Positions 29,236 through 52,261 of a DNA stretch of 64,000 nt are shown one piece after another. The notes beneath the pieces were generated by a model that was given only the letters and a program-made list of their open reading frames with translations, was not told the DNA's origin and did not search any database. The translations under genes and the position numbers were made by a program. Every line of letters begins with the position of its first letter. Positions within the stretch are counted from its first letter, which is position 1. The stretch lies in the NCBI RefSeq assembly GCF_054482525.1, contig NZ_CM137006.1; one strand, written 5' to 3'.

Positions 29236-29518
29236 AGCTTAAGGCCTGAGCCTCCGCTCCTGGAAACACTCCGTCGGTAAAAATCTACCGCCCTGATTAA
29301 TGATGTGAACTGAAGTCAACGGAGATCATTCACCTTAAACCCACCTCAGGAATTTTACACCTGTCTGGTCTCCTGACTGTCCTGGCATACGACATCTGCC
29401 ATCCCCGGTTCCACGGTTATCACATCAACAATCTCAGTACACGACGCCTTCAGTTTCACCATACGCTCGTCTTTCGCTGGCGGGGATGCGTCGTGCGTTT
29501 CCATATGGAGCATATCTT

Positions 29519-30091: not shown

Positions 30092-30159
30092 AAACACCGT
30101 TCAGCAGATTAATCCGCATTTGCACAACCTTCATAAATCTCATAAAGGACATTCTGACC

Positions 30160-30396
30160 ATGTTGACCTCAATGACAGGCCACGACAGCGTGTTGCTGCG
30201 TGCTGACGATCCCCTGATCGACATGAACTACATCACCAGTTTCACCGGTATGACCGACAAATGGTTTTACAAGCTGATCAGTGAAGGCCATTTCCCGAAA
30301 CCCATCAAGCTGGGCCGCAGCAGCCGCTGGTACAAAAGTGAAGTGGAGCAGTGGATGCAGCAGCGAATTGAGGAATCACGAGGAGCAGCAGCATGA
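30160..30396 (+). CDS. alpA: AlpA-family transcriptional regulator (second copy)
   Basis: 78 aa; GMTDKWFYKLISEGHFPKPIKLGRSSRWYKSEVEQWM. Confidence 0.8.
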   Translation: MLTSMTGHDSVLLRADDPLIDMNYITSFTGMTDKWFYKLISEGHFPKPIKLGRSSRWYKSEVEQWMQQRIEESRGAAA

Positions 30397-30664
30397 AACG
30401 TGTTGTGATGCCGGTACGCTGGCAATGTGCAAAATGCCGGCGCTGGTATTGCGGAAATCAGCCCTGTCCCTGGTGCTGGCGACATTACCGTTCATTTTCC
30501 TGCTGACCCTCTCCGGTCAGCCAGCAGGTTGTAGCTCTTTCCTGACTGATTCGTCATTCCATTCACATTGTTTATAACTGGCATTACACCGGTGTTGATG
30601 CGCACCTTCCCGTGTGTCTGCACCGGCTTAACAAAATTCAACAGGGTTTGAAAAGGAACATTTC

Positions 30665-31213
30665 GTGCAAATAACCGAAGCCTTAATTTCAGAGCCGGGA
30701 GACATCCGGCGTTTTGTTCAGCAGGCGGTGGACCACTGGCCGCGTCTGCTGGCAGTCCACTTCACGCTCCATTCGGCTGAAGGAAACATCAACGGGCAAC
30801 AGATTCAGGCATTCTGTACTTCCTTTTACCGACAGGTGCACGAACGTATTACTGAGCGTAATCACACTGCCTGTCCATCCTCGCCGGTGGTATTACGCTG
30901 GTTGCGGGAACAACATGGAGGAGCAACAATACGATGCCTGTTGCTGCTCAGCCAGACGAGCATTTGCCATCCGCGGGCCAGTGCCACGGTTGATGAAGAA
31001 TGTTCGCAACGGGTGGATTTATTGCAACAGACCTGGAAGGTGATAAGCGCTGGCGGACAATGCCAGGTTGAAAGGTGTTTTCGGGTTGCCCGGGGTGATA
31101 CATCTGGCCAGTATGTTGCGTTAAAAACAGTCGCATTGTCTCTGGGGTTACCGGTTGTGATCGCCATTACCCATCGTCCGGTACAGCGCTGTACATTGAT
31201 TACAGCTCAGTGA
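30665..31213 (+). CDS. hypothetical protein (182 aa); may be a decayed gene
   Basis: ORF only; high Cys/Arg content, no motif. Confidence 0.3.
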   Translation: MQITEALISEPGDIRRFVQQAVDHWPRLLAVHFTLHSAEGNINGQQIQAFCTSFYRQVHERITERNHTACPSSPVVLRWLREQHGGATIRCLLLLSQTSICHPRASATVDEECSQRVDLLQQTWKVISAGGQCQVERCFRVARGDTSGQYVALKTVALSLGLPVVIAITHRPVQRCTLITAQ

Positions 31214-31231
31214 ATCAGCGCAGTTGTGCAG

Positions 31232-31534
31232 TCAACGAGGTTTTCTGGCTTTTCGTCGGTCATTCAGCATCATTAAACGGGTCTCTGCCTCTTTCTGTTC
31301 CTGTGGTGTCACTTCCCCGCACGGCTGACCGTTCAGGTTGTAACGGGCGCCACCTGCTATTAACGCACGGTAATAGCGCGGAGACTGCACATAAGACGCC
31401 ACTGCTGCATGTAATGTACCAGCGCCAAACGCCAGTTCTCGGATGGCGATATCCTGTATCAGGTCGTCAGGTATCCCCACTTTAAGTGGTTTTGTTTTTT
31501 TCCCGGTTGAATGACTCAGGCCAGAGTTCCACAA
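31232..31534 (-). CDS. hypothetical protein (100 aa)
   Basis: ORF only. Confidence 0.3.
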   Translation of the reverse strand: MWNSGLSHSTGKKTKPLKVGIPDDLIQDIAIRELAFGAGTLHAAVASYVQSPRYYRALIAGGARYNLNGQPCGEVTPQEQKEAETRLMMLNDRRKARKPR

Positions 31535-32128
31535 GACGAATAATGCGCTTACGGTTTTTGCTCTGGCGTTTTGTCATGTCGCCACGGTGTTTTATCAGCA
31601 GGTTTCTGTTTATCGTTCAACTGTGGTATCTGGTCACCGGCCTTCATTTTGTATGCTGTGTCCGTTTTATCCTGCAGCGGCGTTGCCGGTGATTTACTGA
31701 AAATACCCTGCGGTTTACGGTTAATGGTCAGAGTTACCATCAATTTTGTTACCTCGCGCTGTCAATGGAAGTAGTACCTCATCCGATATCTGAAAATGTT
31801 TTCCGGTGGATGTTACAGCGAATTTCATGTAAGACATGTTGTTGTCGGTATTGTTCAGTACTGTGCGTTGTGAGCGTATTCGTTATCAGACAGAGGGGCA
31901 GGGAACAAACGTCAGAGGTTAAGGATATCCGGGAACAAATGGCGTAAACGGACATCTCAGTGCCTGAGAAACAGTACAGGTCAGGCCATCATGGCCTGCA
32001 AACAGAGCCCTGGCGACCCCGTGGCCGAAAACGAAACAATAACCCGCGCGCAGTGCGAGGAATCCGGATGTGAAGCAATCAGCAGGTAATATTAATGGCA
32101 GGACCAGCAGGTTCTTTAAACAAACGAA

Positions 32129-32891
32129 GGTGGTGACTCCAATTAGTAGAACATATATTTTTCGATAAAGGCACCGATGACTTTTTCATGAAGTTCTACA
32201 GAGCGCGAGAAACAGATAGTTCTGCGGGCCAGACGTTTGATTCGGGTTCTCAGAGGTAGATGTTGCGCTCAATGCGCTGAGTAAAAATCTTACCAGTCAG
32301 ATGCTTCTCCTTCGGTAACTCTCTGGTGTAACTACCCCATTCGTCAGTGGTCAACATACCGATGGTAAAAGGGCAAGCAGCGCCAGCAATTCACGACAGG
32401 TTTAATCAGTCCGTAGGCCAAAAGTGTAGGCCAGAACGCCACCAGTTTTCGTGTTGTACGTGTACCAGAGCCAGTGCTGTCGCGCTTTACTGCCGACAAA
32501 ACTCCATTGCTCATCAAGTTCGCAGATGAGAGCCATATCAGCATGAGCGACCGGGTATGACGTTATTCTTCGTGGCGAGAGTTTTTTAAAGTCCGGATGA
32601 CAGTATTAATGCCGATTTTCAGCGTACGGGCAGTATCGCGAACTCCGGCACCGTTGAAAGCCATTTCAGTGATTTGCTCTTTAACTCCCGGTTTACGGGC
32701 CTCGTAACGGTAAGTGAGCTGAAGCACTCGATGACAGTCACGGCAGCGAAATCGATCATGTCCTTTGGGTTCTTCCCGTGACGGTAAACCTGAACGGACT
32801 GGCAACAGGAGCAATGAAGGTTAACTGTGACCATGAAAGAACCTTAAAAGTGGCTATTATACCCCTAATTCAACTAATTGGAGTCATGACC
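32129..32891 (-). mobile_element. IS1-family element, divergent, insB degenerate
   Basis: Terminal inverted repeats ggtggtgactccaattagt (32129..) and reverse complement ...aattggagtcatgacc (..32891); InsA-like ORF intact, InsB frame broken. Confidence 0.6.
32563..32814 (-). CDS. insA: IS1-family InsA
   Basis: 83 aa; CxxC...QLTYRYEARKPG...MAFNGAGVRDTARTLKIGINTVIRTLKNS parallels IS1 InsA. Confidence 0.65.
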   Translation of the reverse strand: MLLLPVRSGLPSREEPKGHDRFRCRDCHRVLQLTYRYEARKPGVKEQITEMAFNGAGVRDTARTLKIGINTVIRTLKNSRHEE

Positions 32892-33182
32892 GTATTCATA
32901 ATGGATTAGGTTCAGCAGTTGCTGAAGTGCTTGTAGAAACTTGTCCTGTGCCCATGCGTCGGGTGGGGGTTAAAGAGCGGTATGGCCAGGTTGAAACTCA
33001 GGACTTTTTACAGAGAGAGTACGGGTTAACCGCGCAAGCTATTGTGGCGGCAGCCAGAGAGCTATTGTAATTCATGGAGTTTGTTTACCATTCTGTTTTT
33101 CTTAAAAGTGAGTGTCTGTGCGGTCACTAAACTCGGTAATAAAGCAGTTCATTGCAGGATAAGAAGCGTTTGGTTGTGTCGT

Positions 33183-33440
33183 TTTACCGTAAGAACCGAC
33201 CGCCGTATGTATCCATTAAGCCAGTATTGGTAACGTAGGTGCCCACCTTTTCAAACTGGTGGGCGCCTGTTATGGAGCAAAAACATTATCCGCAGAACCC
33301 CGCAGATCATTTTCAAATGAGTTAAACTTCAAATGGTTAAACTGGTTTTGCAACCAGGAGCCTCTGTTGCCCGTATTGCCCGGGAACACGATATCAATGA
33401 TAACCTCCTGTTCAAATGGCTCAGACTCTGGCAGAACGTA
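33183..33440 (+). mobile_element. IS66-family left-end remnant with frameshifted tnpA (orf1) start
   Basis: Terminal sequence begins gtaag...; downstream frame encodes MVKLVLQPGASVARIAREHDINDNLLFKWLRLWQ; same ~75-bp end repeated at 53082..53158. Confidence 0.4.
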
Positions 33441-34296
33441 AGGTAAAGGGAGATGAAAAAGGCAATAGCAGAACTGAGTGACAGTGAAACCATTCTGGCG
33501 TACAGGGTTGGATGGTGAAACTGATAAAAAACCCCCTCTGAAATTCTGTCAGAGGGGCTAGTCAATAAGGGAATAATATTCAACATGAAGATGTCTTCTG
33601 GGAATGTTTATATAGCAAATGCTTTCACTCCGGTAATTAATTTCCGTGATTAACTGCTTTCGATCAATAAAGGAATTGCAAAAGTGTGATCTTGTTCACG
33701 ACATCGTGGATAATAATATGCCTGATGTCTGAATCCGGAAACAGTGCTCTGGCGGGTTTCATGTGAAGTTGACGGATAAAAAATCCGCACGACCAGACAG
33801 ACGTGCGGTTTACGAAATTCGTAACAAGAGGCTTTTCTACGGATCACGTGGTGCGTGCCACGTGAAATTTTTGTAGCGCAAAATGTGCAATGTGTAAATA
33901 CAAGGAAGGAAAAAAGTTAAATTGGTAGAAGTCCATGCCTGCCACATGTACGTCTGCATTCCTCGTTTTGAACAGAATTCTCACCAGACATCGTGAATTT
34001 CTCATTCAATCATCAGAGATATTAACCAGGATTTTTATTGTTTTGTGATATCAGCAGTGCAGGTATACAGACGTTAAAGTAATCAGGTTTATTATAACCA
34101 CCTTTACAAAGTTGTATATGTTTATAATTTAATGATTTTAATGCCAGTCGTTTTCTGCTGCTTAAATTGAGGTCGCATATTATACACAATAATATTCCTG
34201 GCATTATTAAATTAATAAAAGAGGATTCTTATCACTGTATTTTTGCTCCGCACTACCGTTCTGGCTGGTGAAGTAATAATACAGGAGAATAACAGA

Positions 34297-34863
34297 ATGC
34301 TTAAAAGACGTGATGCTTTTTTAAAGAAAAGCGCGCTGGCAGTGAGTGTGGCCCTGCTGCTCTCGGCTCAGGCTCAGGCTGTTTTGACAGGGCCTGTTGA
34401 TGCTAATTCTTCCAGCTTACTGATTGGAGAAAACTCTTTTATTACGAATTCAACTGGTACAGCTAATAACACTTTCCTTTTGGGAGGTGGCGCTTTTAAC
34501 ATGGATTCACCAGGAAGTCTTCAGTTTGGCTCTTTTTCGGGAGTGTATAATTCTCCACACAGTGTCACCCTGGGAAGGGATGCCGGTCAGGCTGAGTCAA
34601 AATATGGTGTTGCCATAGGTAAGAGCGCTGAGGTACTTAATTCACAGCAGAGTGTTGCTATTGGGGGATGGGCTGGAATAGAAAATTCTTCAGGCTCTGT
34701 AGCTCTGGGCCATGGCTCACAGGTGTCGGGAGAAAATAACGTGGTATCTGTTGGTGCCGGACCTGAGGGATATGGAGAGAGTGTCAAAGGAGCACCGGAA
34801 ACCCACTCTATTGTAAACAAGACATTTTTATCTTTTATATTCAATGGCTTATTTTCCTGCTAA
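34297..34863 (+). pseudogene. N-terminal fragment of a trimeric autotransporter (YadA-like) adhesin
   Basis: Signal peptide MLKRRDAFLKKSALAVSVALLLSAQAQA then head-type repeats (SVAIGGWAGIENSSGSVALGHGSQVSGENNVVSVGAG); ORF ends abruptly at the resistance-module junction. Confidence 0.55.
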
Positions 34864-35103
34864 TTGGTAATACCATGAAAAATACCATGCTCAGAAAAGG
34901 CTTAACAATATTTTGAAAAATTGCCTACTGAGCGCTGCCGCACAGCTCCATAGGCCGCTTTCCTGGCTTTGCTTCCAGATGTATGCTATTCTGCTCCTGC
35001 AGCTAATGGATCACCGCAAACAGGTTACTCGCCTGGGGATTCCCTTTCGACCCGAGCATCCGTATGAGACTCATGCTCGATTATTATTATTATAGAAGCC
35101 CCC

Positions 35104-35919
35104 ATGAATAAATCGCTCATCATTTTCGGCATCGTCAACATAACCTCGGACAGTTTCTCCGATGGAGGCCGGTATCTGGCGCCAGACGCAGCCATTGCGC
35201 AGGCGCGTAAGCTGATGGCCGAGGGGGCAGATGTGATCGACCTCGGTCCGGCATCCAGCAATCCCGACGCCGCGCCTGTTTCGTCCGACACAGAAATCGC
35301 GCGTATCGCGCCGGTGCTGGACGCGCTCAAGGCAGATGGCATTCCCGTCTCGCTCGACAGTTATCAACCCGCGACGCAAGCCTATGCCTTGTCGCGTGGT
35401 GTGGCCTATCTCAATGATATTCGCGGTTTTCCAGACGCTGCGTTCTATCCGCAATTGGCGAAATCATCTGCCAAACTCGTCGTTATGCATTCGGTGCAAG
35501 ACGGGCAGGCAGATCGGCGCGAGGCACCCGCTGGCGACATCATGGATCACATTGCGGCGTTCTTTGACGCGCGCATCGCGGCGCTGACGGGAGCCGGTAT
35601 CAAACGCAACCGCCTTGTCCTTGATCCCGGCATGGGGTTTTTTCTGGGGGCTGCTCCCGAAACCTCGCTCTCGGTGCTGGCGCGGTTCGATGAATTGCGG
35701 CTGCGCTTCGATTTGCCGGTGCTTCTGTCTGTTTCGCGCAAATCCTTTCTGCGCGCGCTCACAGGCCGTGGTCCGGGGGATGTCGGGGCCGCGACACTCG
35801 CTGCAGAGCTTGCCGCCGCCGCAGGTGGAGCTGACTTCATCCGCACACACGAGCCGCGCCCCTTGCGCGACGGGCTGGCGGTATTGGCGGCGCTGAAAGA
35901 AACCGCAAGAATTCGTTAA
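35104..35919 (+). CDS. sul2: sulfonamide-resistant dihydropteroate synthase Sul2
   Basis: 271-aa product matches Sul2 as I recall it. Confidence 0.95.
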   Translation: MNKSLIIFGIVNITSDSFSDGGRYLAPDAAIAQARKLMAEGADVIDLGPASSNPDAAPVSSDTEIARIAPVLDALKADGIPVSLDSYQPATQAYALSRGVAYLNDIRGFPDAAFYPQLAKSSAKLVVMHSVQDGQADRREAPAGDIMDHIAAFFDARIAALTGAGIKRNRLVLDPGMGFFLGAAPETSLSVLARFDELRLRFDLPVLLSVSRKSFLRALTGRGPGDVGAATLAAELAAAAGGADFIRTHEPRPLRDGLAVLAALKETARIR

Positions 35920-35979
35920 CTGCACATTCGGGATATTTCTCTATATTCGCGCTTCATCAGAAAACTGAAGGAACCTCCA

Positions 35980-40420: not shown

Positions 40421-40726
40421 TCACTCCGCGGTCTTCACTGCGTGATCGAGTTGATCGACACCCGCCGTGACACGCTCCATGAAGTGCCTGCCTGCGTCTG
40501 TTAGCCGAACGCCCCGCGCATGGCGCTCAAATAGCAGGACACCAAGGTTATCCTCCAGCGCTTTCACACGCGCGCTGACGCTCGACTGGCTGATACCAAG
40601 TGCCTTGGCCGCATGCCGAAAATTCAGATGCTCGGCGACGGCGATGAACTGAACAAGGGAAATGAGCGGTATCCTGCCAGACAGGATACCGACATTCACG
40701 AGGTTTCGATGGTTAGTGCGCCGCAT
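40421..40726 (-). pseudogene. truncated LysR-family regulator gene associated with floR
   Basis: 101-aa ORF with LysR-type HTH (HLNFRHAAKALGISQSSVSARVKALE) but lacking the effector domain. Confidence 0.7.
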
Positions 40727-40753
40727 CGGAGCGGGCCTGCTACCAGTCGTCGG

Positions 40754-41968
40754 TTAGACGACTGGCGACTTCTCGGTGGCAGCCCCACGGAGCCGAAGGA
40801 GCACCAGCCCCAACGAAACCAGTACCGCCATCGCCGTGGCGTAACAGATCACGGGCCACGCTGTGTCACCGTTTAAAAGTGCCACCGCCAATGTCCCGAC
40901 AATGCTGACTATCAGGCTTTGAACGCAGAAGTAGAACGCGACCGCTGATCCCGCGATGTCGTCGAACTCTGCCAAAGCGCCGTTCGCGGTAACGGACACC
41001 GTGAAGACAATACCGACCGCGACAACCCACATCGGTAGGATGAAGGTGAGGAATGACGGCGAGCCGTAAAGTTCGCCGATCCCCAACAGGACCGCTCCGC
41101 AAACAAGCAACGCCATCCCACGCGCCACGCATCCTGCGATGCCCCATCTGGCGACAAAGGACTTCGCGAAACGGGTTGTCACGATCATTACAAGCGCGAC
41201 AGTGGCGAAGGCAAAGCTGAATCCGATCTCGGAATATTCCGCTTGGCCTATGAGCACACGGGGAGCCGTCGAGAAGAAGACGAAGTAGGTGCCCATACCG
41301 GCGCTAAAGCCGACAGTGTAAACCCAAAAAGCCGGACTCGCGAAGATCGGCAAGACAGATCGGCGCGTCTTGACTTGATCCAGAGGGCGGGTTTCGTGCC
41401 ACCTGAAACCCGCATTTAGGAGTGCGAGCATCGCCAGTATAGCCAAAGTAATGAATATCGCCTGCCATCCCAAGAACTCGCCGATCAATGTTCCGGCGAT
41501 AGGGCCGAGCGCAGGCACGAACGCCAGCATCGAACTGAAAAGGCCGTAGATGACGACACCCTCAGGACGGTTGGCATAAACGTCGCGAACCGTCGCGAAC
41601 GTCGCCACCAGCATGGCCGACGCGCCCACTGCTTGAAGTAGACGGAAAGCGACAAAGGCCGGTGCAGTTGAAGACCAAGCTGCTCCCAGAGACGCAATGA
41701 CGAAAGCCGTTGCGCCCGCAAGTAGAATTGGCCGTCGCCCGATTCTGTCTGAGAGCGGACCAAAAATCACCTGGCCCACGCCGAGCATCACCATATAGAG
41801 GCTCAACGTGAGTTGGATCATAGCGGGCGTCGTGTTCAGGATGCCGGGCATCGCTGGAACGACAGGGAGATAAATATCCATCGCCAGTGAAGCGAGGATG
41901 TCGAAAGGAGCCATCAGCAGCAGTGCTGCCGGCAGCGTATAGGCCCACGCGGGGCGTGTGGTGGTCAT
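40754..41968 (-). CDS. floR: florfenicol/chloramphenicol efflux MFS transporter FloR
   Basis: 404-aa product matches FloR as recalled. Confidence 0.95.
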   Translation of the reverse strand: MTTTRPAWAYTLPAALLLMAPFDILASLAMDIYLPVVPAMPGILNTTPAMIQLTLSLYMVMLGVGQVIFGPLSDRIGRRPILLAGATAFVIASLGAAWSSTAPAFVAFRLLQAVGASAMLVATFATVRDVYANRPEGVVIYGLFSSMLAFVPALGPIAGTLIGEFLGWQAIFITLAILAMLALLNAGFRWHETRPLDQVKTRRSVLPIFASPAFWVYTVGFSAGMGTYFVFFSTAPRVLIGQAEYSEIGFSFAFATVALVMIVTTRFAKSFVARWGIAGCVARGMALLVCGAVLLGIGELYGSPSFLTFILPMWVVAVGIVFTVSVTANGALAEFDDIAGSAVAFYFCVQSLIVSIVGTLAVALLNGDTAWPVICYATAMAVLVSLGLVLLRLRGAATEKSPVV

Positions 41969-42184
41969 GACGAATCAACCCTCGATTAAGGAATACCGGG
42001 CGACGTCTGCTCGTCAGCAATCAGATGAGACTAGCCTTACAGAGCGCCGCAACAACAATACTGGTTGTTGCGGCTTACTTGTCTGCTGACTTGGAATTTC
42101 CCATCTGATTACTCCACGCTTACGAATATGAATTGCTACATTTTATCCGATTATCTTTTGCTTCGCAATGCGGCATGGGCGCAC

Positions 42185-43069
42185 TCAGCGTTCCAGCCCC
42201 CTCTGCCGCCCTAACTGCCACGACACCGACCCGCCCTGCACGATGCCCATAACCTCGCGGCCGAGTTGGCGGTCGATGATCGGCCGCCACGGGACAAGGG
42301 TGAACTCATGGGATTTCTCGACCACGGCGAACTTGCCGCTCGATAGATGCACGGTTCCGGTAAACTTGCCGCTGACGCTCTCGCCGTCCGTGGCGGCGCG
42401 GAACGGCAGGCCCTTACTCAAAGCCATATCCGATCCGACGCCGGCTACCTCGCGCTCCCGCAGGATGGCGAGAAGGTTGCGCCGGTAGAAGACGCGGCTG
42501 TCCCGGCTGCGGGTGGCGTCGCCCTGTTCGATATGGTGCTCGCGGCGCTGGTCCATGGCTTCGCGGACTTGTTGCCCGAAGCCGGTTGGCGCAAGGTCGG
42601 CCGTCTCGCCGTGGATCAGCCGCCGGTCCAGCCAGGTCGCGCCGTCCGATCCGATCTGTTTGTTCAGATCGACCGGGGAAAGGACGCGAACGCTGGCCTG
42701 ACTGTCTCGGCCGGCGTCATGGGCGGCGGCACGGCTGACCAGATCATTGGGGATGCGCCATTGGTCGGCGTCGATCCGCTCGACGATACCGGCCCGGCGT
42801 AGCGCCTCCAGCCGGCGCACATGGGCATCGACATAGCCCTCATAGTCGCCGCCTGGAACGCGGCACGTATAGGAAGAATAAACGCCCTTTTCACCCAAGT
42901 CCAACAGCTTTGGACCGCAGTTGACTCTTTCGACACCCCTGCGATGCAACCCAATCCGGCTGACGGGGAGCCAGCAACGCTGAAAATTTACCCTCCTCTT
43001 TCCCACTAGCGGCTCCTTTTCCGACAACCAGCACGGCGGATCCCTGCCGCGGCGCTGTGAACGCAGCAT
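42185..43069 (-). CDS. floR-associated hypothetical protein (often annotated VirD2-like)
   Basis: 294-aa GC-rich ORF between floR and the ISCR2 fragment, the position this gene occupies in floR cassettes. Confidence 0.55.
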   Translation of the reverse strand: MLRSQRRGRDPPCWLSEKEPLVGKRRVNFQRCWLPVSRIGLHRRGVERVNCGPKLLDLGEKGVYSSYTCRVPGGDYEGYVDAHVRRLEALRRAGIVERIDADQWRIPNDLVSRAAAHDAGRDSQASVRVLSPVDLNKQIGSDGATWLDRRLIHGETADLAPTGFGQQVREAMDQRREHHIEQGDATRSRDSRVFYRRNLLAILREREVAGVGSDMALSKGLPFRAATDGESVSGKFTGTVHLSSGKFAVVEKSHEFTLVPWRPIIDRQLGREVMGIVQGGSVSWQLGRQRGLER

Positions 43070-43099
43070 TTTGATTGGTATCGTTGGCCTTCAGGCTCG

Positions 43100-43753
43100 T
43101 CAGTCAAACAGACCCAGGAGCAGCTCAGCCGGTGGCGCCCGGCTTTCGGGTAACGCCCTGGTCCCGCTGGTTTCGGCTTTGTGCTTCAGGTGATCAAGGA
43201 TCTGCTTGATCACTATAGGGTCTTCAATGCAGGCGATGACTTTCATGGCGCCGCCGCAGCCGCTGCAGGTCTCGATGTCGATATTGAAAACACGCTTGAG
43301 CCGTTGCGCCCATGTCATCGACGCTCGCCGTTGTGCTGGTGTTGCCGGTTCATCAGCCACCCTGACCTTGTTGCCCCTGCCCCGTTTTGCCGGCGTGACC
43401 AACGCCCGGTGCCGACTGTTGGGTGCGAACACCCCGTGGAAGCGGGTTAGGTTGACTCTGGGCTTCGGTACCAGGGCGGCCAGCCTTGCAATGAAATCCA
43501 ATGGTTCGAAAATGACGTGCGTGGTGCCGTCCCGGTACGGCGTCTTGAGCTGGTAGCGCACGTTGCCGCCTCGTGTTAACGACAGCCGCTTCTCGGATAC
43601 CGCCGGGCGGCTGATGTACCGGCACAGCCGTTCGAGCTTCTTGCGTTCATCGGCCCTGGCCGCCACGCCGGCGTGCAGGCTGGACCCGGCTACCTTGCCA
43701 ATCCCGTCACCGAACGGATCACCACTGGTCGGCAGAGTTTGCAAAGTGAACAA
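43100..43753 (-). mobile_element. truncated ISCR2 (IS91-family rolling-circle transposase), C-terminal part only
   Basis: 217-aa ORF resembling the ISCR2 C-terminal half; N-terminal half absent, sequence changes to papI at ~43740. Confidence 0.65.
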
Positions 43754-43968
43754 CTCTGCCCCGCCTGCTTCTCTCCTTTCAGAAGCCAGTATGTTGCCAT
43801 GCCCCGTCTTAATGGTGAGCGCTGAACCATACCTGCTTTTTCCAGTAATAACAGGTAATAGCGGGCCTGGTAATCCGTTACCGCCAGCGCCTCCGCAATT
43901 TCTGCCGTTTTCCCTCCATCATGCCTGTTCAGAAATTCCAGTATTTCATTCTTCATATATTCACTCAT
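43738..43968 (-). CDS. papI: fimbrial regulatory protein PapI (3' end abuts the ISCR2 fragment)
   Basis: [61 protein letters not shown] matches PapI; ORF tail beyond ~77 codons is junction-derived. Confidence 0.8.
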
Positions 43969-44390
43969 CTCACTGTAACAAAGTTTCTTCGAATAATAAA
44001 AATCATGCTTTCTGTTATCAACGGAAAGGTATTTTTATTCTCTGTGTTTGCTGTGTTTGCTGTGTTTGCTTTATTTGTGCAATTTAGTGAATTTGCTTTT
44101 TATTTGCTTTATTTGATATGTATCACATTTTGCGTTTTATTTTTCTGTGAAAAGAAAGTCCGTAAAAATGCATTTAGACGATCTTTTATGCTGTAAATTC
44201 AATTTACTATGATGTTTTTATCTGAGCGCATTCTTATTATTAGTGTTTTATTCTAGTTTAATTTTATTTTGTGGGTTAAAAGATCGTTTAAATCAATATT
44301 TACAACATAAAAAACTAAATTTAACTTATTGCGTGAAGAGTATTTCCGGGCCGGAAGCATATATCCAGGGGCCCGACAGAAGGGGGAAAC
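43969..44390. promoter_or_regulatory. pap phase-variation switch region (papI-papB intergenic) with the two Dam GATC sites
   Basis: Only two GATC sites in the interval, at 44180-44183 and 44282-44285, 102 bp apart as in the pap switch; also a 9-bp triplicated repeat gtgtttgct at ~44041-44070. Confidence 0.7.
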
Positions 44391-44705
44391 ATGGCGCATC
44401 ATGAAGTCATCAGTCGGTCAGGAAATGCGTTTTTGCTGAATATACGCGAGAGCGTACTGTTGCCCGGCTCTATGTCTGAAATGCATTTTTTTTTACTGAT
44501 AGGTATTTCTTCTATTCACAGTGACAGGGTCATTCTGGCTATGAAGGACTATCTGGTAGGTGGGCACTCCCGTAAGGAGGTCTGCGAGAAATACCAGATG
44601 AATAATGGGTATTTCAGTACAACACTTGGGAGACTTATACGGCTGAATGCTCTTGCAGCAAGGCTTGCACCTTATTATACAGATGAGTCGTCGGCATTTG
44701 ACTGA
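44391..44705 (+). CDS. papB: fimbrial regulator PapB
   Basis: 104-aa ORF directly downstream of the switch region; PapB-like size and position. Confidence 0.8.
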   Translation: MAHHEVISRSGNAFLLNIRESVLLPGSMSEMHFFLLIGISSIHSDRVILAMKDYLVGGHSRKEVCEKYQMNNGYFSTTLGRLIRLNALAARLAPYYTDESSAFD

Positions 44706-44911
44706 ATGATGGCATTCCGGAGTTATCTTACAGATAAAAAGAAGTCCTTATCAGAAAGCAGACAGGTTATATCAGTATTCTGTCGATAAATAACCTGCCC
44801 TGAAAATACGAGAATATTATTTGTATTGATCTGGTTATTAAAGGTAATCGGGTCATTTTAAATTGCCAGATATCTCTGGTGTGTTCAGTAATGAAAAAGA
44901 GGTTGTTATTT

Positions 44912-45180
44912 ATGATTAAGTCGGTTATTGCCGGTGCGGTAGCTATGGCAGTGGTGTCTTTTGGTGTAAATGCTGCTCCAACTATTCCACAGGGGCAGGG
45001 TAAAGTAACTTTTAACGGAACTGTTGTTGATGCTCCATGCAGCATTTCTCAGAAATCAGCTGATCAGTCTATTGATTTTGGACAGCTTTCAAAAAGCTTC
45101 CTTGAGGCAGGAGGTACATCCAAGCCAATGGATTTAGATATTGAGTTAGTAAATTGCGATATTACAGCTTTTAAACAAGG
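44912..45180 (+). pseudogene. papA: major pilin papA, 5' fragment only
   Basis: MIKSVIAGAVAMAVVSFGVNAAPTIPQGQGKVTFNGTVVDAPCSIS... pilin N-terminus; pilin-like sequence ends at ~45177, where a perfect palindrome starts. Confidence 0.7.
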
Positions 45181-45189
45181 TCAAGCACT

Positions 45190-45235
45190 GATGAATCCCC
45201 TAATGATTTTTATCAAAATCATTAGGGGATTCATC
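45190..45235. repeat. perfect 21-bp inverted repeat (hairpin) at the papA truncation junction
   Basis: gatgaatcccctaatgatttt / tatc / aaaatcattaggggattcatc; no flanking T-run. Confidence 0.7.
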
Positions 45236-45583
45236 AGGACTCAGTATAAATCCAAGACAAAATCCCCCCGTGAATGCATTTAATAAAGACTTTAATGTTC
45301 TGTTAAAGGTGCGGATATAAAATGCATAAATAAAAGAAAGAGATCCGGTGATTATACCGGTGCAAAAATATGTTGTCCATTCAGGTACCGTATTTTGTAA
45401 AACAGTATAATGAGATATAGCGGATGCCCACAACATATACCAGCACAAACCACCTGTAATAAGATATGTTATTGCTGTGGAAAACCATTTCCTGTATTTA
45501 TTTTCAGGGTAATTGTTCTTGCCCATCAACGCATTTCCAGAATATTTAAAATAACCTGTCACCGAAACGGAATAAAGGCGCAA
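45200..45583 (-). CDS. hypothetical small membrane protein (127 aa)
   Basis: Hydrophobic segments (LITGGLCWYMLWASAI; GIITGSLSFIYAFYI; GGFCLGFIL); 42 bp downstream of the dGTPase gene on the same strand. Confidence 0.4.
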   Translation of the reverse strand: MRLYSVSVTGYFKYSGNALMGKNNYPENKYRKWFSTAITYLITGGLCWYMLWASAISHYTVLQNTVPEWTTYFCTGIITGSLSFIYAFYIRTFNRTLKSLLNAFTGGFCLGFILSPDESPNDFDKNH

Positions 45584-45625
45584 TAACCATAACGGGAAAA
45601 TATGCGCCTCTGGTAATCGGCAGTG

Positions 45626-46858
45626 TTACTTCAGACAGTGAGTTTCCCATTCCTTGACTGCAAATGTATCCATCATACCTGAAATATAGTCAACCACTGC
45701 TCGTTTTTTGCTGATTTCAAATATACAGGAATCTGGTTGGGGTAAGGTGAATTTAAGTTCAGGAGGCAGAAATTTATAATTCTCTCCTTCATTGTAAAAG
45801 TCATATAAATCCCTGATTATTTTATTTCCCCTGAACTCATAGGTGAGGATATTACGTTTTCGCATGATGACTTTAAAGAGAAGTTTTTTGAGTCCTTCGG
45901 ATAACGCATTCAGTTTCCCGAACCCCAGTTCCTGAAAACCATTCAGGTTCGTTACTACAGAAATATCTGCAACGAGGCGATTGACAATATTTGAAGTTAA
46001 CTCCTTGCGGAATATGATGGCAAATTCTTCTGAGGTTTTCAGTAAGTTAGCCTGAAAAGCGGTGTTTCTCGACTGAGTAACGATTTCCCTGAACTGTTCC
46101 CTCGCTCCCCGGAATTCGTCAGAAATCTGAAACTCATATTCAATATCTTCAATCGTGACCATGTTCCTGCTAAGGGCATCTTCCAGGTCATGCGCGGCGT
46201 AGGCAATCTCATCCGCGAGATCCATTATCTGCGCATCAATCGTTTTCTCTCCGGGATTCAGATCGAGCTGATTTTCAGCAAGCAGGTTAATGTAAAAATA
46301 GTAATCATCATCATAAATGAACTTGCCGGCAGTAGCTGCAGCGCGGGGGATGGGATACTTAACAACCGAAAGTAAACTACGGTGAGTCAGATTTAATCCG
46401 TTGCAGTATGAAAATTTCTTCTCCAGTTTTCTCAGGATACGTAGCGCCTGTGCATTACCTTCATAGCCGCCGATTTCTTCAGACAGTTCATTAAGCAGTT
46501 TTTCACCGGAATGACCGAAAGGAGGATTTCCGATGTCATGCGCCAGCGCTGCCAGTTCAACCACCACCGGGTTAATCAGTTTGAGGTCTGACGCGATACT
46601 TCGGGCGATCTGAGCAACCTCAAGACTGTGCGTTAATCTGTTTCTGTTGAATTTTTCAGGATCAATTTCAAAAAGTTGCATCTTTCCCTGCAGCCTGCGA
46701 AATGATGATGAATACAGAATACGCGCGTAATCCCGTTGATAATTATCCCGGCTTCTTGTTTCACCATCGGGGGACGGGTGCTCTCTGGTATCAGCAAGCG
46801 CACTGATAAGTTTTTGTTCCTGCTCTTGCGCAAATTCTTTTAATTCATTGCAGTACAT
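45626..46858 (-). CDS. HD-domain dGTPase-like deoxynucleoside triphosphate triphosphohydrolase
   Basis: Motifs YQRDYARILYSSSFRRLQGKMQLF, RLTHSLEVAQIARSIA, LAHDIGNPPFGHSGE typical of Dgt-family enzymes; start at second Met (RBS-like AAGGAAG upstream); AT-rich. Confidence 0.75.
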   Translation of the reverse strand: MYCNELKEFAQEQEQKLISALADTREHPSPDGETRSRDNYQRDYARILYSSSFRRLQGKMQLFEIDPEKFNRNRLTHSLEVAQIARSIASDLKLINPVVVELAALAHDIGNPPFGHSGEKLLNELSEEIGGYEGNAQALRILRKLEKKFSYCNGLNLTHRSLLSVVKYPIPRAAATAGKFIYDDDYYFYINLLAENQLDLNPGEKTIDAQIMDLADEIAYAAHDLEDALSRNMVTIEDIEYEFQISDEFRGAREQFREIVTQSRNTAFQANLLKTSEEFAIIFRKELTSNIVNRLVADISVVTNLNGFQELGFGKLNALSEGLKKLLFKVIMRKRNILTYEFRGNKIIRDLYDFYNEGENYKFLPPELKFTLPQPDSCIFEISKKRAVVDYISGMMDTFAVKEWETHCLK

Positions 46859-47008
46859 ATTTCTTCCTTTCTGGAGCATGTTACCAAATCAGAATACCGG
46901 ATGAACAAAACTGGTGGCTACATCCTGTAGGGATTATGTATTAGTAAGCTCTGGCCATTAGTGCCATTTCAGGTTATGTGATCCTACCCACGTAATATGG
47001 ACACAGGC

Positions 47009-47875
47009 CTAAGCGAGGTTCTTGTTTTCAAATTGTTCCGGACTGAGGCCGCCACACCAACTGTGCCGCCGCCACCGATTGTAATCACATTCGATATAAT
47101 TAAACACCGTTGCCCGCATTATTTCCCGGCTGATAAAGTGTTCTCCATGGATACATTCCACTTTCAGCGAATGAAAGAAGCTTTCCACGCAGGCATTATC
47201 GTAGCAGCAACCTTTTGCGCTCATACTTCCACGCAGATTATGCCGCTTCAGTTGCGCCTGATAATCTGCTGAACAGTACTGGCCTCCACGGTCCGTGTGA
47301 ACGATAACGTTCCGGGGCCTCTTACGCCGCCACAGCGCCATCTGCAGGGCATCGCAGGCCAGTTGCGCCGTCATGCGTGGCGACATTGACCAGCCAATAA
47401 CGGCACGTGACCACAGGTCAATGACCACTGCCAGATACAGCCAGCCTTCATCTGTACGTAAGTACGTGATGTCTCCTGCCCACTTCTGGTTCGGGCCACT
47501 GGCGTAAAAATCCTGCTCCAACAGATTTTCTGACACAGGCAGGCCGTGTGCGCGGTAGCTGACCGGGCTGAACTTCCGGGAGGCCTTTGCCCTCAGTCCC
47601 TGACGGCGCAGGCTTGCCGCCACGGTTTTTACGTTAAAGGGGTAACCCTGAGCACGCAGTTCATCCGTCAGGCGTGGGGCACCGTAACGCTGTTTTGACC
47701 GGGTAAAAGCCGCGAGGACAACGCTGTCGCAGTGTTGGCGGAACTGCTGACGCGTGCTTATCCTTGTCCGCCGCTGACACCACGTATACCAGCCGCTGCG
47801 GGCCACCCGGAGCACGCGGCACATTGCTTTGATGCTGAACTCAGCCTGATGTTTTTCAATAAAGACATACTTCAT
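47009..47875 (-). CDS. insF: IS3 transposase OrfB
   Basis: 288-aa product matches IS3 OrfB as recalled. Confidence 0.9.
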
Positions 47876-48337: not shown

Positions 48338-49318
48338 ATGACTCTTTTGGTAACGGCTGAGTGTGTTGACGATCTGATAAACGATGTTCATCAAGCTATC
48401 CTAGCGGATGGACTCAGTAACGATCCTACAAAAGGATCAACTCTAGAGATTCTTGGTGCCTATCTTGTCCTTACCGACCCCCGCCGAAGAATAAGTAGAA
48501 CAGAATCCCGAGGAAAACTAATTAGTTGCTTAGGTGAATTTCTGTGGTATCTCTCAGCTCAGAACGATCTTGAGTTTATAAAACACTTCATACCACGTTA
48601 CGCTGAATCCGCTGAGTCAGATGGGAAAATACATGGTGGTTACGGGCCACGGTTGTTTAATATGCGTGGTTTATATAATCAGCTAAAAAATGTTATCAAC
48701 CTTTTGCAGGAGAAAAAACCTACCAGACGTGCAGTAATACAGCTTTTCGATGCCTCAGACTTGGTGCCCTCAAAAACTGAACAGCGAGAATACGTAGATA
48801 TTCCTTGTACAATATCTATGCAGTTTATTGTCAGATGTGAAGAGCTGCATCTATTTGTTTGTATGCGTTCTAACGATGCCTTTATGGGGCTGCCTCATGA
48901 TGTATTTGCGTTCACGATGCTACAGGAATTAGTTGCCCGCTTGATAGGATGCGAATTGGGTCACTATCATCACTTTGTATCCAGCCTACATCTCTATAAA
49001 AATGATTTAGAAAAAGTGAAGGCTCTTCAGAAAGAGGGGTTCATGAGCACCCTACCAGTCATGGGATCGATGCCTGAAATGCATTCCTTAGATGATATCT
49101 TACCCCTGCTTGAGGCAGAAAAAGCTCTTCGAGAGAATAAGGAATTTGATATTGACACTACTTCCTTGAATGACTACTGGAAGGATTTATTGCGTATATT
49201 AAAAATCCACTTTTTGTTACGTTCACATACACCCAACCACAAAGGACTAGCCTTCCAAGAGTTGGCTGCAATGAAAAATCAGGAATATCGGTTTATTTTT
49301 GAAGGAAGACTACAATGA
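48338..49318 (+). CDS. thymidylate synthase-fold protein (ThyA / dNMP hydroxymethylase family) with ~90-aa C-terminal extension
   Basis: Aligns by eye to ThyA: GSTLEILGAYLVL, ISCLGEFLWYL, LYNQLKNVINLLQEKKPTRRAVIQLFDASDL, DIPCTISMQFIV (Cys at catalytic position), CMRSNDAFMGLPHDVFAF, HLYKNDL. Confidence 0.7.
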   Translation: MTLLVTAECVDDLINDVHQAILADGLSNDPTKGSTLEILGAYLVLTDPRRRISRTESRGKLISCLGEFLWYLSAQNDLEFIKHFIPRYAESAESDGKIHGGYGPRLFNMRGLYNQLKNVINLLQEKKPTRRAVIQLFDASDLVPSKTEQREYVDIPCTISMQFIVRCEELHLFVCMRSNDAFMGLPHDVFAFTMLQELVARLIGCELGHYHHFVSSLHLYKNDLEKVKALQKEGFMSTLPVMGSMPEMHSLDDILPLLEAEKALRENKEFDIDTTSLNDYWKDLLRILKIHFLLRSHTPNHKGLAFQELAAMKNQEYRFIFEGRLQ

Positions 49319-50259
49319 AAAGACATAATCAAATCAGTCAGCTGGTTAGTAATTTGCAAAATTTTAGCCGCAATGAACACAACCTAAATGGCCTAAGTTC
49401 TCCTGCCTGCTTTGATGTTTTAGCCTGTCAGATTATCGACAGTATACGTCGTATACGCTATGTGGAAACTCTTGCATTACGGACCGATTATATGACTCCG
49501 TTACGAAAAGAGCCGAATTCTGATGTTTTTGATCCTCTCCGCGCTGCCTGCCTTTATCTTCGTGACAACAATTACGATGAAGCCTGCTGGCTGGTTTTCC
49601 TTGCCACACATTTCGGCAAGAGTAACAAAACCGGCTGGATTTTGTGTCGAGATATATACAGTGGACTCGGTACACAAACGTGGACATGGGATACGATAAC
49701 TGATGACTTTGCTGCTTTTGAACAATGGTTCGCCAGCGTCTCTGATGAGTTGACAGCTAACAGTAGCCTAAGACAATATGGTAACCATCGGAAATATGAA
49801 ACGAAGAAATATCACTCTCGTCGTTCAATACCTGCGGTTTTTCGCTCTTACATCGGATTCATTGGTGCTACACACAGTCATGAGGCTAGGTTTGCAGAGG
49901 CCAAGAGCTTTTCATCTTCACCAGAATCTTTATTCGAACTATTGTATTCAGGGCTAAATGCCGTGATCTCATTTGGACGAACCGCAAAATTTGATTACCT
50001 AACTATGCTCAAGAAAACGGGACTTCTGGATGTAGAGCCGGGTCATGCTTTTCTGAATGGAGCAACCGGGCCCCTTCAAGGAAGCCGGCTACTTTTCAGC
50101 AATAGCCGGACTGCTGGTGACACAATAGACGTATTGAATGAAAAACTAGCTGACCTTGCGGCAATTATTCCTGCACCCTACTTGAGAATGCAGGTTATTG
50201 AAGATGCGTTGTGCAACTGGCAGAAATCACCTGACCGTTATGTCTATTTCGGCGGCTGA
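49315..50259 (+). CDS. uncharacterised protein co-operonic with the TS-fold gene
   Basis: 314-aa ORF overlapping upstream gene by 4 bp (ATGA); no motif I can assign. Confidence 0.5.
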   Translation: MKRHNQISQLVSNLQNFSRNEHNLNGLSSPACFDVLACQIIDSIRRIRYVETLALRTDYMTPLRKEPNSDVFDPLRAACLYLRDNNYDEACWLVFLATHFGKSNKTGWILCRDIYSGLGTQTWTWDTITDDFAAFEQWFASVSDELTANSSLRQYGNHRKYETKKYHSRRSIPAVFRSYIGFIGATHSHEARFAEAKSFSSSPESLFELLYSGLNAVISFGRTAKFDYLTMLKKTGLLDVEPGHAFLNGATGPLQGSRLLFSNSRTAGDTIDVLNEKLADLAAIIPAPYLRMQVIEDALCNWQKSPDRYVYFGG

Positions 50260-50261
50260 TA

Positions 50262-51344
50262 TCAGACGATATCTTCTTTACGGAATCTCACTTTAAACCG
50301 ATTAAGGTGAGAAAAAGGTATATTACCTTCATGCTGCAAATATCCCAGTACGATCCCTTTGGATACCCCCATTTTCCTAGCTAACCGGATGATCTCTTTC
50401 CAATGCCGGACACCATAGCGACTAAGTTGCTGCCGGTATTCTTCTGGGATAAGAACATCAACGGCAAATTTATCTGCTTCCTTTTCCTCTTCCGACGAAA
50501 GACTATCTTTACCTTCTACGCGAACTCGGACAGCTTCATGCAAGATGAGATGCCCAATCTCATGAAACAGCGTAAACCAAAAATGGTCATCGGTCAGATA
50601 ACGGAAACTCATGACTAGGGTTGCGCGATCTGGTGTAAAAAAGCAGGTAGCACCACTTGCCCGACATCCCTTTGGCGTTGGCAACACAACGAGAGAAACT
50701 CCAGCAGTGGCGAGAAGGTCGCGAATGTAAGGGATAAAAATCCTCATGTCGGGTTCATTTGTAGCTTTGCGCAGTTCTGGCAACAATGCTATCAGCCCCT
50801 CTTTATCCCATACAGCACAGTTTTGGTTTGAGGTAAGTTGTGCAGCCCTAGTCAGCCACACCAAATCGGCCATAGGCTCGGTTGCCAGATTAAGAGATTT
50901 ACGAAAAGCGACCAAAGGAGCATCTGACTGAATTTTATAAAAAAAATCATTGACGGAATTTATTCCGAAAAACGATAGGCAGTGCTGGAATTTACTTTCC
51001 CGAGTTGTAGTTTTGGGGATCCAACCAAACTCCATCATATCACGTACAGGCAATGATTCGAGCCAATCATTATTCACTTTCTCGAGGTATCCAATTTGCT
51101 GGCGATAAGCGACTTCGCGCTTGATCCAGAAGTCTGTCGATACGTTGAATAACTCCTCAAGCTTACAAGCCAGAGACTCATTGAGTCGGATTTTTCCTTC
51201 AAGAAGTTGCTGACCCCGGATAAGAGACAATCCAATCCTCTTACTCAGTTCTTCACCAGAAAGCCCATGTTCATCCATTAGATCTATAATTGTATCACCG
51301 GGTGGAGATACCCAGTCAGGCTGGAAGTCCTGCGTAACTATCAT
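50262..51344 (-). CDS. XRE-family HTH fused to ImmA/IrrE-type zinc metallopeptidase (HigA-like antitoxin/regulator)
   Basis: N-terminal HTH (IIDLMDEHGLSGEELSKRIGLSLIRGQQLLEG), C-terminal HEXXH (FTLFHEIGHLILHE); overlaps upstream small gene by 4 bp. Confidence 0.65.
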   Translation of the reverse strand: MIVTQDFQPDWVSPPGDTIIDLMDEHGLSGEELSKRIGLSLIRGQQLLEGKIRLNESLACKLEELFNVSTDFWIKREVAYRQQIGYLEKVNNDWLESLPVRDMMEFGWIPKTTTRESKFQHCLSFFGINSVNDFFYKIQSDAPLVAFRKSLNLATEPMADLVWLTRAAQLTSNQNCAVWDKEGLIALLPELRKATNEPDMRIFIPYIRDLLATAGVSLVVLPTPKGCRASGATCFFTPDRATLVMSFRYLTDDHFWFTLFHEIGHLILHEAVRVRVEGKDSLSSEEEKEADKFAVDVLIPEEYRQQLSRYGVRHWKEIIRLARKMGVSKGIVLGYLQHEGNIPFSHLNRFKVRFRKEDIV

Positions 51345-51667: not shown

Positions 51668-51810
51668 AATTATCCACTTTTATTTTTCTTGGTTGCTACG
51701 TTTATAGCAAACTCAACGCTCATTCACAAAATGAGATGTAGCGAATTAATGGACTCTGCACATATTAAATGTTAATGATGGACTTAAAATCACGGATTCG
51801 TAAGGGAAAC

Positions 51811-52077
51811 ATGAAAGGTAAACATCAAGACACTAAAGCCCTGTCTGACGTGCTAGCGGAAATGCAACGGCAGGATGCCAAATGGGGGGCAGACCGTAAT
51901 CAAGATCCTTTTATCTGGGGAGCGATTCTCGGAGAAGAGGTGGGAGAATTTCATCAGGCTGTCCTCCATGATCGTTTTGGTGGTAAAGCAGCCGGTACCA
52001 GTAGGGAGGAAGCAGTACAAATTGCTGCTGTTGCACTGCAAATCATCGAATATTATGATCGCGTAATAGATCGATAA
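51811..52077 (+). CDS. small MazG-like NTP pyrophosphohydrolase-like protein (tentative)
   Basis: AILGEEVGEFHQAV and REEAVQIAAVALQIIEYY resemble the MazG EExGE helix pair; start at internal Met of ORF 51769..52077. Confidence 0.35.
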   Translation: MKGKHQDTKALSDVLAEMQRQDAKWGADRNQDPFIWGAILGEEVGEFHQAVLHDRFGGKAAGTSREEAVQIAAVALQIIEYYDRVIDR

Positions 52078-52261
52078 ATTAGAATTAATCAACTAAGAGT
52101 CTTTTACACGCGAAGATGAACTCTGGCAGCCATCTACCTTCGTGGGCCTGTAGAACACATCTAATTGCAATACTCCCAGTTAATCACTAACCAGCCTCTC
52201 CAGTAAGGCTGGTCGATTAGGTTTAATTAAACAGATATAACAAGCAATTCACTTGGTATTA

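Follow-up and report, generated by a model that had tools for sequence, protein, structure and literature searches.

A pap switch remnant between a broken ISCR2 and an apparent Tn10 excision scar in an Escherichia coli resistance and defence island

Studies have shown that Lrp, Dam, PapI, and PapB together form a self-perpetuating switch (review PMC11316696). In the DNA analyzed here, a stretch of 64,000 nucleotides from contig NZ_CM137006.1 (assembly GCF_054482525.1) that we call the window, such a switch stands without the operon that it should control, and its papA gene breaks off at a perfect palindrome on the near side of a dGTPase gene. How did the switch come to this place, what is the palindrome, and can the remnant still have a function? 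We believe it highly likely that the region is the fossil of a pap (P-fimbria) operon that once belonged to a tRNA-Phe-associated pathogenicity island, and that mobile elements have cut this operon back at both ends. The host context is an E. coli resistance and defence island, in which ISCR2 cut one side of the fragment and Tn10 cut the other. The feature is real, and it is of already known kinds, namely a known switch and a known transposon scar.

The window was compared with the intact pap locus of E. coli ATCC 11775, in which papI, papB, papA, papH, and papC are followed by further pap genes through papG-II and the island backbone genes are shared with the window. From 43748 to 45187, 1,439 of 1,440 bp were identical and there were no gaps; the single mismatch was at 44226, in the switch region. 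The pap homology ended at 45187, exactly where the perfect inverted repeat starts in the alignment. The fragment therefore contains a papI-derived ORF, the Dam/Lrp switch, papB, and 92 of the 182 papA codons. Its parts to the right of papI are as follows.

43969 to 44390, not stranded: complete papI-papB intergenic switch, collinear with intact pap loci, without gaps and with one mismatch (44226) against ATCC 11775
44042 to 44077, not stranded: three tandem 9-bp units, two of them CTGTGTTTG and the third degenerate, on the papI side of the switch
44391 to 44705, plus strand: papB, intact, 104 aa, identical to reference PapB at 104 of 104 residues
44912 to 45187, plus strand: papA', the first 92 of 182 codons (signal peptide and N-terminal part of the pilin), by homology to intact papA

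Between papI and papB there are exactly two GATC sites, GATC-distal at 44180-44183 and GATC-proximal at 44282-44285, and their spacing of 102 bp agrees with the preliminary description of this DNA. Each site lies within ACGATCTTTTA, the two copies being in inverted orientation, and an imperfect 45-nt inverted repeat (44162-44206 and 44259-44303) is centred on both GATC boxes. The two ACGATC motifs fall in the distal and proximal Lrp site sets, and the control region is enclosed by divergent genes as in other pap-type switches, a papI-family gene on the minus strand (Pfam FaeA, E 1.3e-30) and a papB-family gene on the plus strand (Pfam PapB, E 1e-36). Pfam was used for both genes, as NCBIfam holds no model naming PapI or PapB. 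A simple promoter scan found the promoter-like element TTGATA-17-TATTAT upstream of the papI-derived ORF (44021-43993, minus strand) and did not flag a plus-strand papBA promoter. The papBA promoter is weak and activator-dependent, so the missed call is not strong evidence against it. The tandem 9-bp units aligned without a gap to ATCC 11775, whereas CP088753 has one unit and differs by an 18-bp indel. Because of the gapless match to ATCC 11775, we regard the units as native to this pap allele; the repeat is not mentioned in the PapB review (PMC11316696).

The papB product has a complete Pfam PapB domain and carries the same accession, WP_000930062.1, as in ATCC 11775, and papB had thus rightly been called intact. 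The papA gene had been said to stop after about 88 codons at the inverted repeat. The break does fall exactly at the repeat, but 92 codons are kept, and the frame reads through the scar for 31 further codons to a TAA at 45281-45283. The Pfam Fimbrial domain is covered only from position 2 to 54 of 151, and RefSeq already marks papA as incomplete with a missing C-terminus. The C-terminal half that assembly requires is missing from the PapA' fusion, which is presumably degraded. PapH, PapC, PapD, and PapG were not found by tblastn in the whole 64-kb window. The preliminary description of an orphaned switch with a truncated papA and without usher, chaperone, or adhesin genes was therefore correct, and no linked chaperone-usher operon (major subunit, usher, chaperone, and adhesin) is driven by the switch. 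The pap loci of the pheV islands of ATCC 11775 and APEC O1:K1:H7 consist of the same DNA, with divergent papI and papB and two GATC boxes in ACGATC context 102 bp apart. Compared with these loci, the window lacks papH through papG, keeps 92 of 182 papA codons, and encodes a PapI that has lost three residues and gained a foreign tail of 18 residues. Since papH to papG are absent and papA is cut, the switch in the window controls no fimbria.

The other end of the fragment lies in papI, where the following features meet.

43100 to 43752, minus strand: 3' part of a truncated ISCR2 transposase gene (C-terminal ~216 codons; NCBIfam ISCR_clade_Ia positions 293-508 of 509)
43690 to 43968, minus strand: papI' fusion ORF, 92 aa, PapI residues 1-74 and then an 18-residue tail translated from the ISCR2 transposase gene in another frame
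43748 to 43752, not stranded: GAACA, a 5-bp microhomology at the ISCR2/papI junction, from a three-way alignment of the window, ISCR2, and the ATCC 11775 pap locus

The window is identical to intact ISCR2 up to 43752, and the broken 5' side of the transposase gene adjoins papI; RefSeq labels this fragment as ISCR2 with a missing N-terminus. As only the C-terminal ~216 transposase codons are left, the joint lies inside the element and not at its end. To judge from the alignment, we take the GAACA joint to be an illegitimate-recombination joint. Translation against the 77-aa PapI of ATCC 11775 showed that native residues 75-77 and the stop codon of papI have been lost, and the truncated transposase gene that supplies the tail is co-directional with papI'. 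The claim that papI is intact thus fails in the strict sense, as the last three residues and the stop codon have been replaced by 18 foreign residues, but it stands for the Pfam FaeA domain, which is complete (positions 1-61 of 62). The papI' ORF lies just to the left of the interval treated in the preliminary description, which starts at 43969. In genomes carrying the junction, the annotated papI is this fusion ORF.

The break in papA is framed by three short elements.

45179 to 45187, not stranded: GGTCAAGCA, the 9-bp target duplication of Tn10, copy on the papA side, present as a single copy in the uninterrupted ATCC 11775 allele
45188 to 45237, not stranded: 50-bp perfect palindrome, Tn10 remnant, with 23-bp outer-end arms and the 4-nt loop TATC
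45238 to 45246, not stranded: GACTCAGTA, backbone that directly follows the right outer end and does not repeat the left flank

There is a perfect inverted repeat at the break, as had been described, but its arms are 23 bp and not 21 bp long, and the whole element is 50 bp. A match to an arm was obtained in 0 of 100 shuffles of the window, and no other IS10 end is present in the 64-kb window. The remnant of a nearly precise excision of Tn10 is 50 bp in size, with two 23-bp arms and a 4-nt loop; the window element has the same layout and can be derived from the Tn10 ends of R100. The left outer end of Tn10 in R100 reads CTGATGAATCCCCTAATGATTTT-TATC-AAAATCATTAAG..., the right outer end reads ...CTTAATGATTTT-TACC-AAAATCATTAGGGGATTCATCAG, and the window 50-mer consists of outer-end bases 1-37 of IS10-left followed directly by the final 13 bases at the outer end of IS10-right. 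It thus holds the inverted terminal 23 bp of both Tn10 ends and a loop from one of them. Direct repeats of 11 bp, CAAAATCATTA, are nested in the two inverted Tn10 ends, and slippage between them yields the window 50-mer. An alternative crossover in TAATGATTTTTA predicts a TACC loop, and the TACC form was found in pD72-F33. Studies have shown that nearly precise excision of Tn10 is a transposase-independent copy-choice process using short direct repeats nested in inverted ends (PMC12524634, PMC5991714); the primary references are Ross, Swan and Kleckner 1979 and Foster et al. 1981, as cited in 10.1101/2023.06.07.543989. On the strength of these matches, we believe that the palindrome is a nearly-precise-excision remnant of Tn10.

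One property of a simple Tn10 remnant is absent, as the scar in the window is not flanked by a 9-bp direct duplication (GGTCAAGCA on the left, GACTCAGTA on the right). Unlike a simple remnant, it has the papA copy of the duplication as its left flank and unrelated island backbone as its right flank. The mismatch is explained by an exchange of the right flank, and the unlike flanks point to a second rearrangement superimposed on the scar. The scars at other sites have matching flanks. For example, the pD72-F33 scar lies between two copies of CGCTCTGCC, which is the same site and the same duplication as that of the full Tn10 in R100, and three more scars, on IncI1, IncN, and IncX4 plasmids, each lie between two perfect copies of a 9-bp sequence specific to that site. 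Target-duplication flanks were thus found at four other scar sites, one of which is the R100 Tn10 site, and both loop forms occur. The full-length 50-mer was present in 428 of 5,426 complete E. coli genomes, and the scar was found at other sites in 994 plasmids. Among the loci inspected there were a handful of distinct 50-mer sites, two of them with a full-Tn10 counterpart. An exact-pattern scan of representative genomes of 100,044 species gave one match, in a Streptomyces contig with F-plasmid flanks, which is probably contamination. The 50-mer is not annotated as a feature in the RefSeq records of window-type genomes that were inspected, and a literature search for the island, papA::Tn10, or "Tn10 remnant" found nothing specific. 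In our opinion, the 50-mer reliably records that Tn10 once occupied a site.

A full Tn10 at the same site was found in related DNA. A synthetic query of 200 bp of papA' and 200 bp of IS10-left was identical at 400 of 400 positions in 35 complete genomes. D10, APEC O2-211, and XH993 carry a complete Tn10 with tet(B) at that papA position, and they share the delta-ISCR2/papI' joint, followed by papB, papA', and Tn10. Beyond the transposon, these three have the 3' part of papA, a frameshifted papH, papC, and an IS insertion; further downstream, D10 continues with papD through papG-II, tia, an integrase, and tRNA-Phe. The Tn10 of D10 is flanked on both sides by GGTCAAGCA with its TATC-loop end toward papB, which is exactly the orientation implied by the scar in the window. 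By the preliminary description's own standard, a common repetitive element unrelated to the junction would have spoken against its reading. The palindrome is indeed recurrent, as the plasmid count shows, but the full Tn10 at the same papA position in related genomes ties it causally to the junction. In KSC9, the 50-mer stands beside a retained IS10 at this locus in a complex arrangement.

To the right of the scar, and in a tiling of the window against UMNF18-type and D10-type islands, the following were found.

45238 to 45526, minus strand: 5' 96 codons of a gene for a 189-aa hypothetical protein, cut by the scar, by comparison with the intact ORF of UMNF18 and 97-3250
45626 to 46879, minus strand: dGTPase of the anti-phage dGTP triphosphohydrolase family (TIGR01353, 316 bits, above the cut-off; PADLOC dGTPase, 365 bits)
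30400 to 31200: best match UMNF18-type, ~99-100%
31200 to 35960 and 42865 to 45224: best match D10-type, ~100%
45238 onward: best match UMNF18-type, 99.93%

The two D10-type stretches are separated by an inserted strAB-tetA-floR block. In UMNF18 and 97-3250, ProQ, an H-NS-like gene, the 189-aa ORF, the dGTPase gene, IS3, and a thyA-like gene follow each other without any pap gene, and the backbone of this sibling type of island also carries restriction-modification defence genes together with the dGTPase. The 189-aa product is probably a membrane protein; it has no Pfam or PADLOC family, and its fragment is unannotated in RefSeq. GACTCAGTA is a single copy in the uninterrupted UMNF18 island (8001-8009 of the UMNF18 locus), with unrelated backbone before it. 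The right flank of the window occurs in 334 genomes, of which only 128 have the window junction, and two right-flank genomes without the junction, examined in detail, have no pap DNA at this place. The palindrome had been suggested to mark the end of an inserted dGTPase module. It does lie at a module boundary, but the polarity is reversed: the numbers of right-flank and junction genomes, together with the UMNF18-type islands without pap, show that the dGTPase gene and its neighbours belong to the resident backbone. By the tiling, it is the pap fragment, with the resistance genes to the left of it, that is foreign. Nor does the palindrome belong to the dGTPase module, being a generic Tn10 excision scar.

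The junction is distributed widely. A 2,601-bp junction stretch was found in 128 complete genomes and was 100% identical in all 25 of the matches listed, and the carriers came from chickens, pigs, cattle, dogs, a giant panda, a gull, river water, and humans. Only one plasmid carries the junction, the IncI plasmid pNDM5_LS003 with NDM-5. This plasmid also contains the chromosomal backbone and the dGTPase gene, which indicates a secondary capture from the island, and the left arm of the palindrome is missing in its copy.

These data bear on a different origin of the pap fragment, in which it would be a plasmid-borne passenger of the sul2/floR-ISCR2 region, taken up by rolling-circle capture of ISCR2. 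ISCR elements are known to mobilise neighbouring DNA, and the fragment abuts ISCR2 at the end of a 13-kb resistance block that is absent from UMNF18-type islands. However, ISCR2 is broken within its transposase gene at the pap junction and not at its terminus, the same junction occurs in D10-type pheV islands with the rest of pap in natural order, and the intact allele of ATCC 11775 lies in the same backbone (Gp2, hypothetical, HTH regulator, and papI). With the secondary capture in pNDM5_LS003 as the only plasmid case, we hold the chance of such an origin to be minimal. A plasmid origin of the fragment together with the resistance region was rejected, since D10-type and ATCC 11775-type islands hold this allele in its natural context.

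The wide occurrence of the 50-mer also raises the question of whether it has been selected, for example as a terminator or an insulator separating papA' from the dGTPase module, or is a miniature mobile element moved by IS10, and not a passive scar. The predicted RNA hairpin is very stable (-38.9 kcal/mol, z -9.5), a DNA hairpin would be as well, both transposase-binding termini are kept, and the element persists unchanged in the 128 genomes and also in 994 plasmids. The hairpin would lie within the predicted papBA' transcript without a U-tract; the stem is followed by GGACTCAGTATAAA with no T-run, and a terminator scan made no call, so that it does not resemble a Rho-independent terminator. 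Moreover, identical 50-mers at unrelated sites always look as expected from Tn10 excision, the only match among the 100,044 species representatives was at an F-plasmid site, the window has no other IS10 end, and one derivative has lost an arm. The persistence of the 50-mer follows from recent common descent of identical DNA. We therefore consider a selected or mobile element very improbable and continue with the excision scar.

In this study, we propose the following order of events. The starting point would be the intact papIBAHCDJKEFG operon, of which ATCC 11775 and APEC O1/O2:K1:H7 strains carry the very same allele. In a first step, Tn10 inserted into papA at the target GGTCAAGCA with IS10-left toward papB, and illegitimate recombination at GAACA linked the sul2-ISCR2 resistance region to the 3' end of papI; the 35 complete genomes that include D10, APEC O2-211, and XH993 still preserve this state. 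In a second step, the pap-type segment, from about position 31200 of the window to the transposon, would have replaced part of a sibling dGTPase/restriction-modification island, namely the stretch from ProQ through the 3' part of the 189-aa ORF, with the left crossover in shared backbone and the right joint exactly at the right outer end of Tn10. In a third step, the 9.1-kb Tn10 would have been lost by nearly precise excision through slippage between the CAAAATCATTA repeats, keeping the TATC loop of IS10-left. For the right joint, the most likely origin is homologous recombination with a further Tn10 or IS10 copy that had inserted at GACTCAGTA, within the recipient's 189-aa ORF, and the simplest route would be a double homologous exchange with its right crossover in this Tn10/IS10, followed by nearly precise excision. 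This route with two copies would be marked by two junctions with more than 37 bp of IS10, one in which the backbone ...GTTCAGACTCAGTA is followed by CTGATGAATCCCC, and one in which GGGGATTCATCAG is followed by GACTCAGTATAAATCC.

Synthetic junction queries against the 5,426 complete E. coli genomes found no IS10-right end beside the dGTPase-side flank, no native left flank running into Tn10, IS10, or a scar at GACTCAGTA, and no in-situ scar that continues into the 3' part of papA. As these intermediates are absent from the 5,426 genomes, we infer both the order of the second and third steps and the mechanism of the right joint. A tentative alternative is that the right joint was made by the Tn10/IS10 transposase, through an adjacent deletion into a tandem dGTPase-type island, or in one step by excision-type slippage. 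In the slippage variant, the IS10-left end in papA would have paired with an inverted, separate IS10 in the 189-aa ORF, and everything between them would have been deleted. The joint is exactly at the transposon terminus, and the IS10 target consensus, NGCTNAGCN, has a symmetric CT-N-AG core that is also present in GACTCAGTA. Islands of this family sit in tandem, as shown by an integrase and 23 bp of the tRNA-Phe 3' end at 10807-12340 of the window; the 50-mer beside a retained IS10 in KSC9 speaks for complex IS10-driven rearrangements at this locus, and no parent with a second copy exists among the 5,426 genomes. However, the D10-type segment begins on its left side, at ~31200, within shared backbone, and there is no IS10 end at this boundary. 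This is the signature of a homologous crossover, and at least one homologous exchange is needed in any case. Furthermore, in the D10-type islands that were examined, no dGTPase module follows downstream before tRNA-Phe is reached, and adjacent deletions by IS10 are rare. We therefore think that a joint made by transposase or slippage is possible but doubtful, and prefer the homologous exchange. The locus provides a worked example with three sampled states, namely the intact operon, the operon interrupted by Tn10, and the scar with an exchanged flank. The transposon would first have acted as a mutagen, then probably as portable homology that fused a virulence and a defence island, and then have gone, leaving 50 bp.

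Does the remnant still have a function? With its cis elements and PapB intact and the PapI domain kept, it reads as a self-contained pap epigenetic switch without fimbrial output. By analogy with the known switch, it probably still flips between the ON and OFF states defined by Lrp and Dam. The ON state would yield PapB, with the type 1 fimbrial switch as a possible target, and a PapA' peptide that cannot be assembled. Studies have shown that PapB inhibits FimB-mediated switching of type 1 fimbriae and locks the fim switch (PMC11316696), and that fim-dependent autoaggregation is affected in trans by an orphan paralogue of papB carried on a resistance plasmid (PMC7734786). An action of PapB and PapI in trans on other fimbrial operons, as the preliminary description had suggested, is plausible and consistent with these two reports. 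We regard it as rather unlikely that the orphan switch is a working toggle that creates a phase-variable PapB subpopulation and biases type 1 fimbriation, and perhaps motility, in trans. The foreign tail of 18 residues on PapI and the loss of the native 3' end count against an active switch. If the toggle did work, a heritable bet-hedging regulator would be hitch-hiking with resistance and anti-phage genes in multidrug-resistant, mostly livestock-associated E. coli, and adhesin expression could be modulated in widespread multidrug-resistant lineages.

The closest parallel is the orphan papB/pefB paralogue of pMB2 (Monarrez and Okeke 2020, PMC7734786), which is likewise a PapB-family regulator located outside a fimbrial cluster together with resistance genes. 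For the pMB2 gene, an action in trans on a fim-dependent phenotype was shown. The remnant in the window differs from it in having a bona fide papB and the full switch with papI, and in lying in a chromosomal island.

The gene cut by the Tn10 scar, the 50-bp remnant of nearly precise excision, encodes a hypothetical protein of 189 aa, and in the native island it lies directly upstream of the anti-phage dGTPase gene. Both copies are as follows:

Window 45238-45526, minus strand: truncated copy of the 189-aa hypothetical protein gene.
L002 (the UMNF18 island) 7720-8289: intact copy of the same gene.

In the window the scar shortens this reading frame to 96 codons, and the shortened frame carries no RefSeq annotation. 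Its product is probably a membrane protein, and no family match was obtained in Pfam or PADLOC. Should the 189-aa protein work together with the dGTPase, defence may be altered in every scar-bearing genome.

Further genes follow the dGTPase and an IS3 element:

Window 48338-51344 and about 51800-52100: cluster downstream of dGTPase and IS3.

The cluster contains a thymidylate-synthase-like gene, a 314-aa hypothetical protein and a 360-aa XRE-family protein that matches PD-Lambda-2_B in PADLOC (E 9e-30), and in the homologous record of Sanji, a scar-bearing E. coli, a MazG-like gene is also annotated here. A type I restriction-modification system and an AAA ATPase come after the XRE-family/MazG-like stretch. 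Taken together, the genes downstream of the dGTPase look like a defence cluster with a nucleotide-metabolism flavour. The thyA-like block is missing from strain 97-3250, whose island is of the UMNF18 type.

The 50-mer also occurs in other settings. At the papA::Tn10 locus of E. coli KSC9 (L008 4663-6059), an inverted IS10-right, TGCTCAGCA and the TACC-loop form of the 50-mer were found in that order. This locus still has its tet(B) region, and the 50-mer there adjoins the 3' part of papA. Of the two 9-bp sequences flanking the inverted IS10, each is the reverse complement of the other. Therefore, the 50-mer can form by some rearrangement without loss of the whole Tn10.

The NDM-5 plasmid pNDM5_LS003 (L016; IncI-gamma/K1) has taken up approximately 12.6 kb of the chromosomal island, spanning Gp2 to the dGTPase:

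Window 28782-34801 and 40429-47023: island blocks on pNDM5_LS003.

Its scar has a 27-bp deletion (L016 about 10780-10810, corresponding to window 45183-45209) that removes the final 5 bp of the truncated papA and nearly the whole left arm of the palindrome. This loss reflects either instability of the palindrome or an assembly artefact. A scar with the R100-site duplication CGCTCTGCC was found beside an F-plasmid ParB-like gene on the 4,944-bp contig164 of Streptomyces morookaense (L012); this short contig is almost certainly a contaminant of the assembly, derived from an enterobacterial plasmid.

On the papI side of the pap switch, a short unit is repeated:

Window 44042-44077: repeated 9-bp unit CTGTGTTTG.

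The number of copies varies among pap alleles, with three in the window and in ATCC 11775 and one in CP088753. PapB binds T/A-rich repeats with a 9-bp period in this area, so the copy number might tune its activation of papI.

Towards the left of the window, possible traces of integration were found:

Window 10859-12121, minus strand: integrase gene, within 10807-12340.

The region 10807-12340, which also contains 23 bp of sequence like that at the tRNA-Phe 3' end, shares 95.6% identity with the end of the pheV island in D10. The 64-kb window includes no complete tRNA. The sequence suggests tandem integration of two islands that left an att remnant internally.

The 13-kb resistance block has a defined left end:

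Window 32129-32160: terminal inverted repeat of a degenerate IS1-family element, GGTGGTGACTCCAATTAG...

Behind this repeat lie part of a transketolase gene and, after it, sul2. The same layout was found in D10-type islands (pheV islands with a full Tn10 in papA), and the arrangement is therefore older than the hybrid island.
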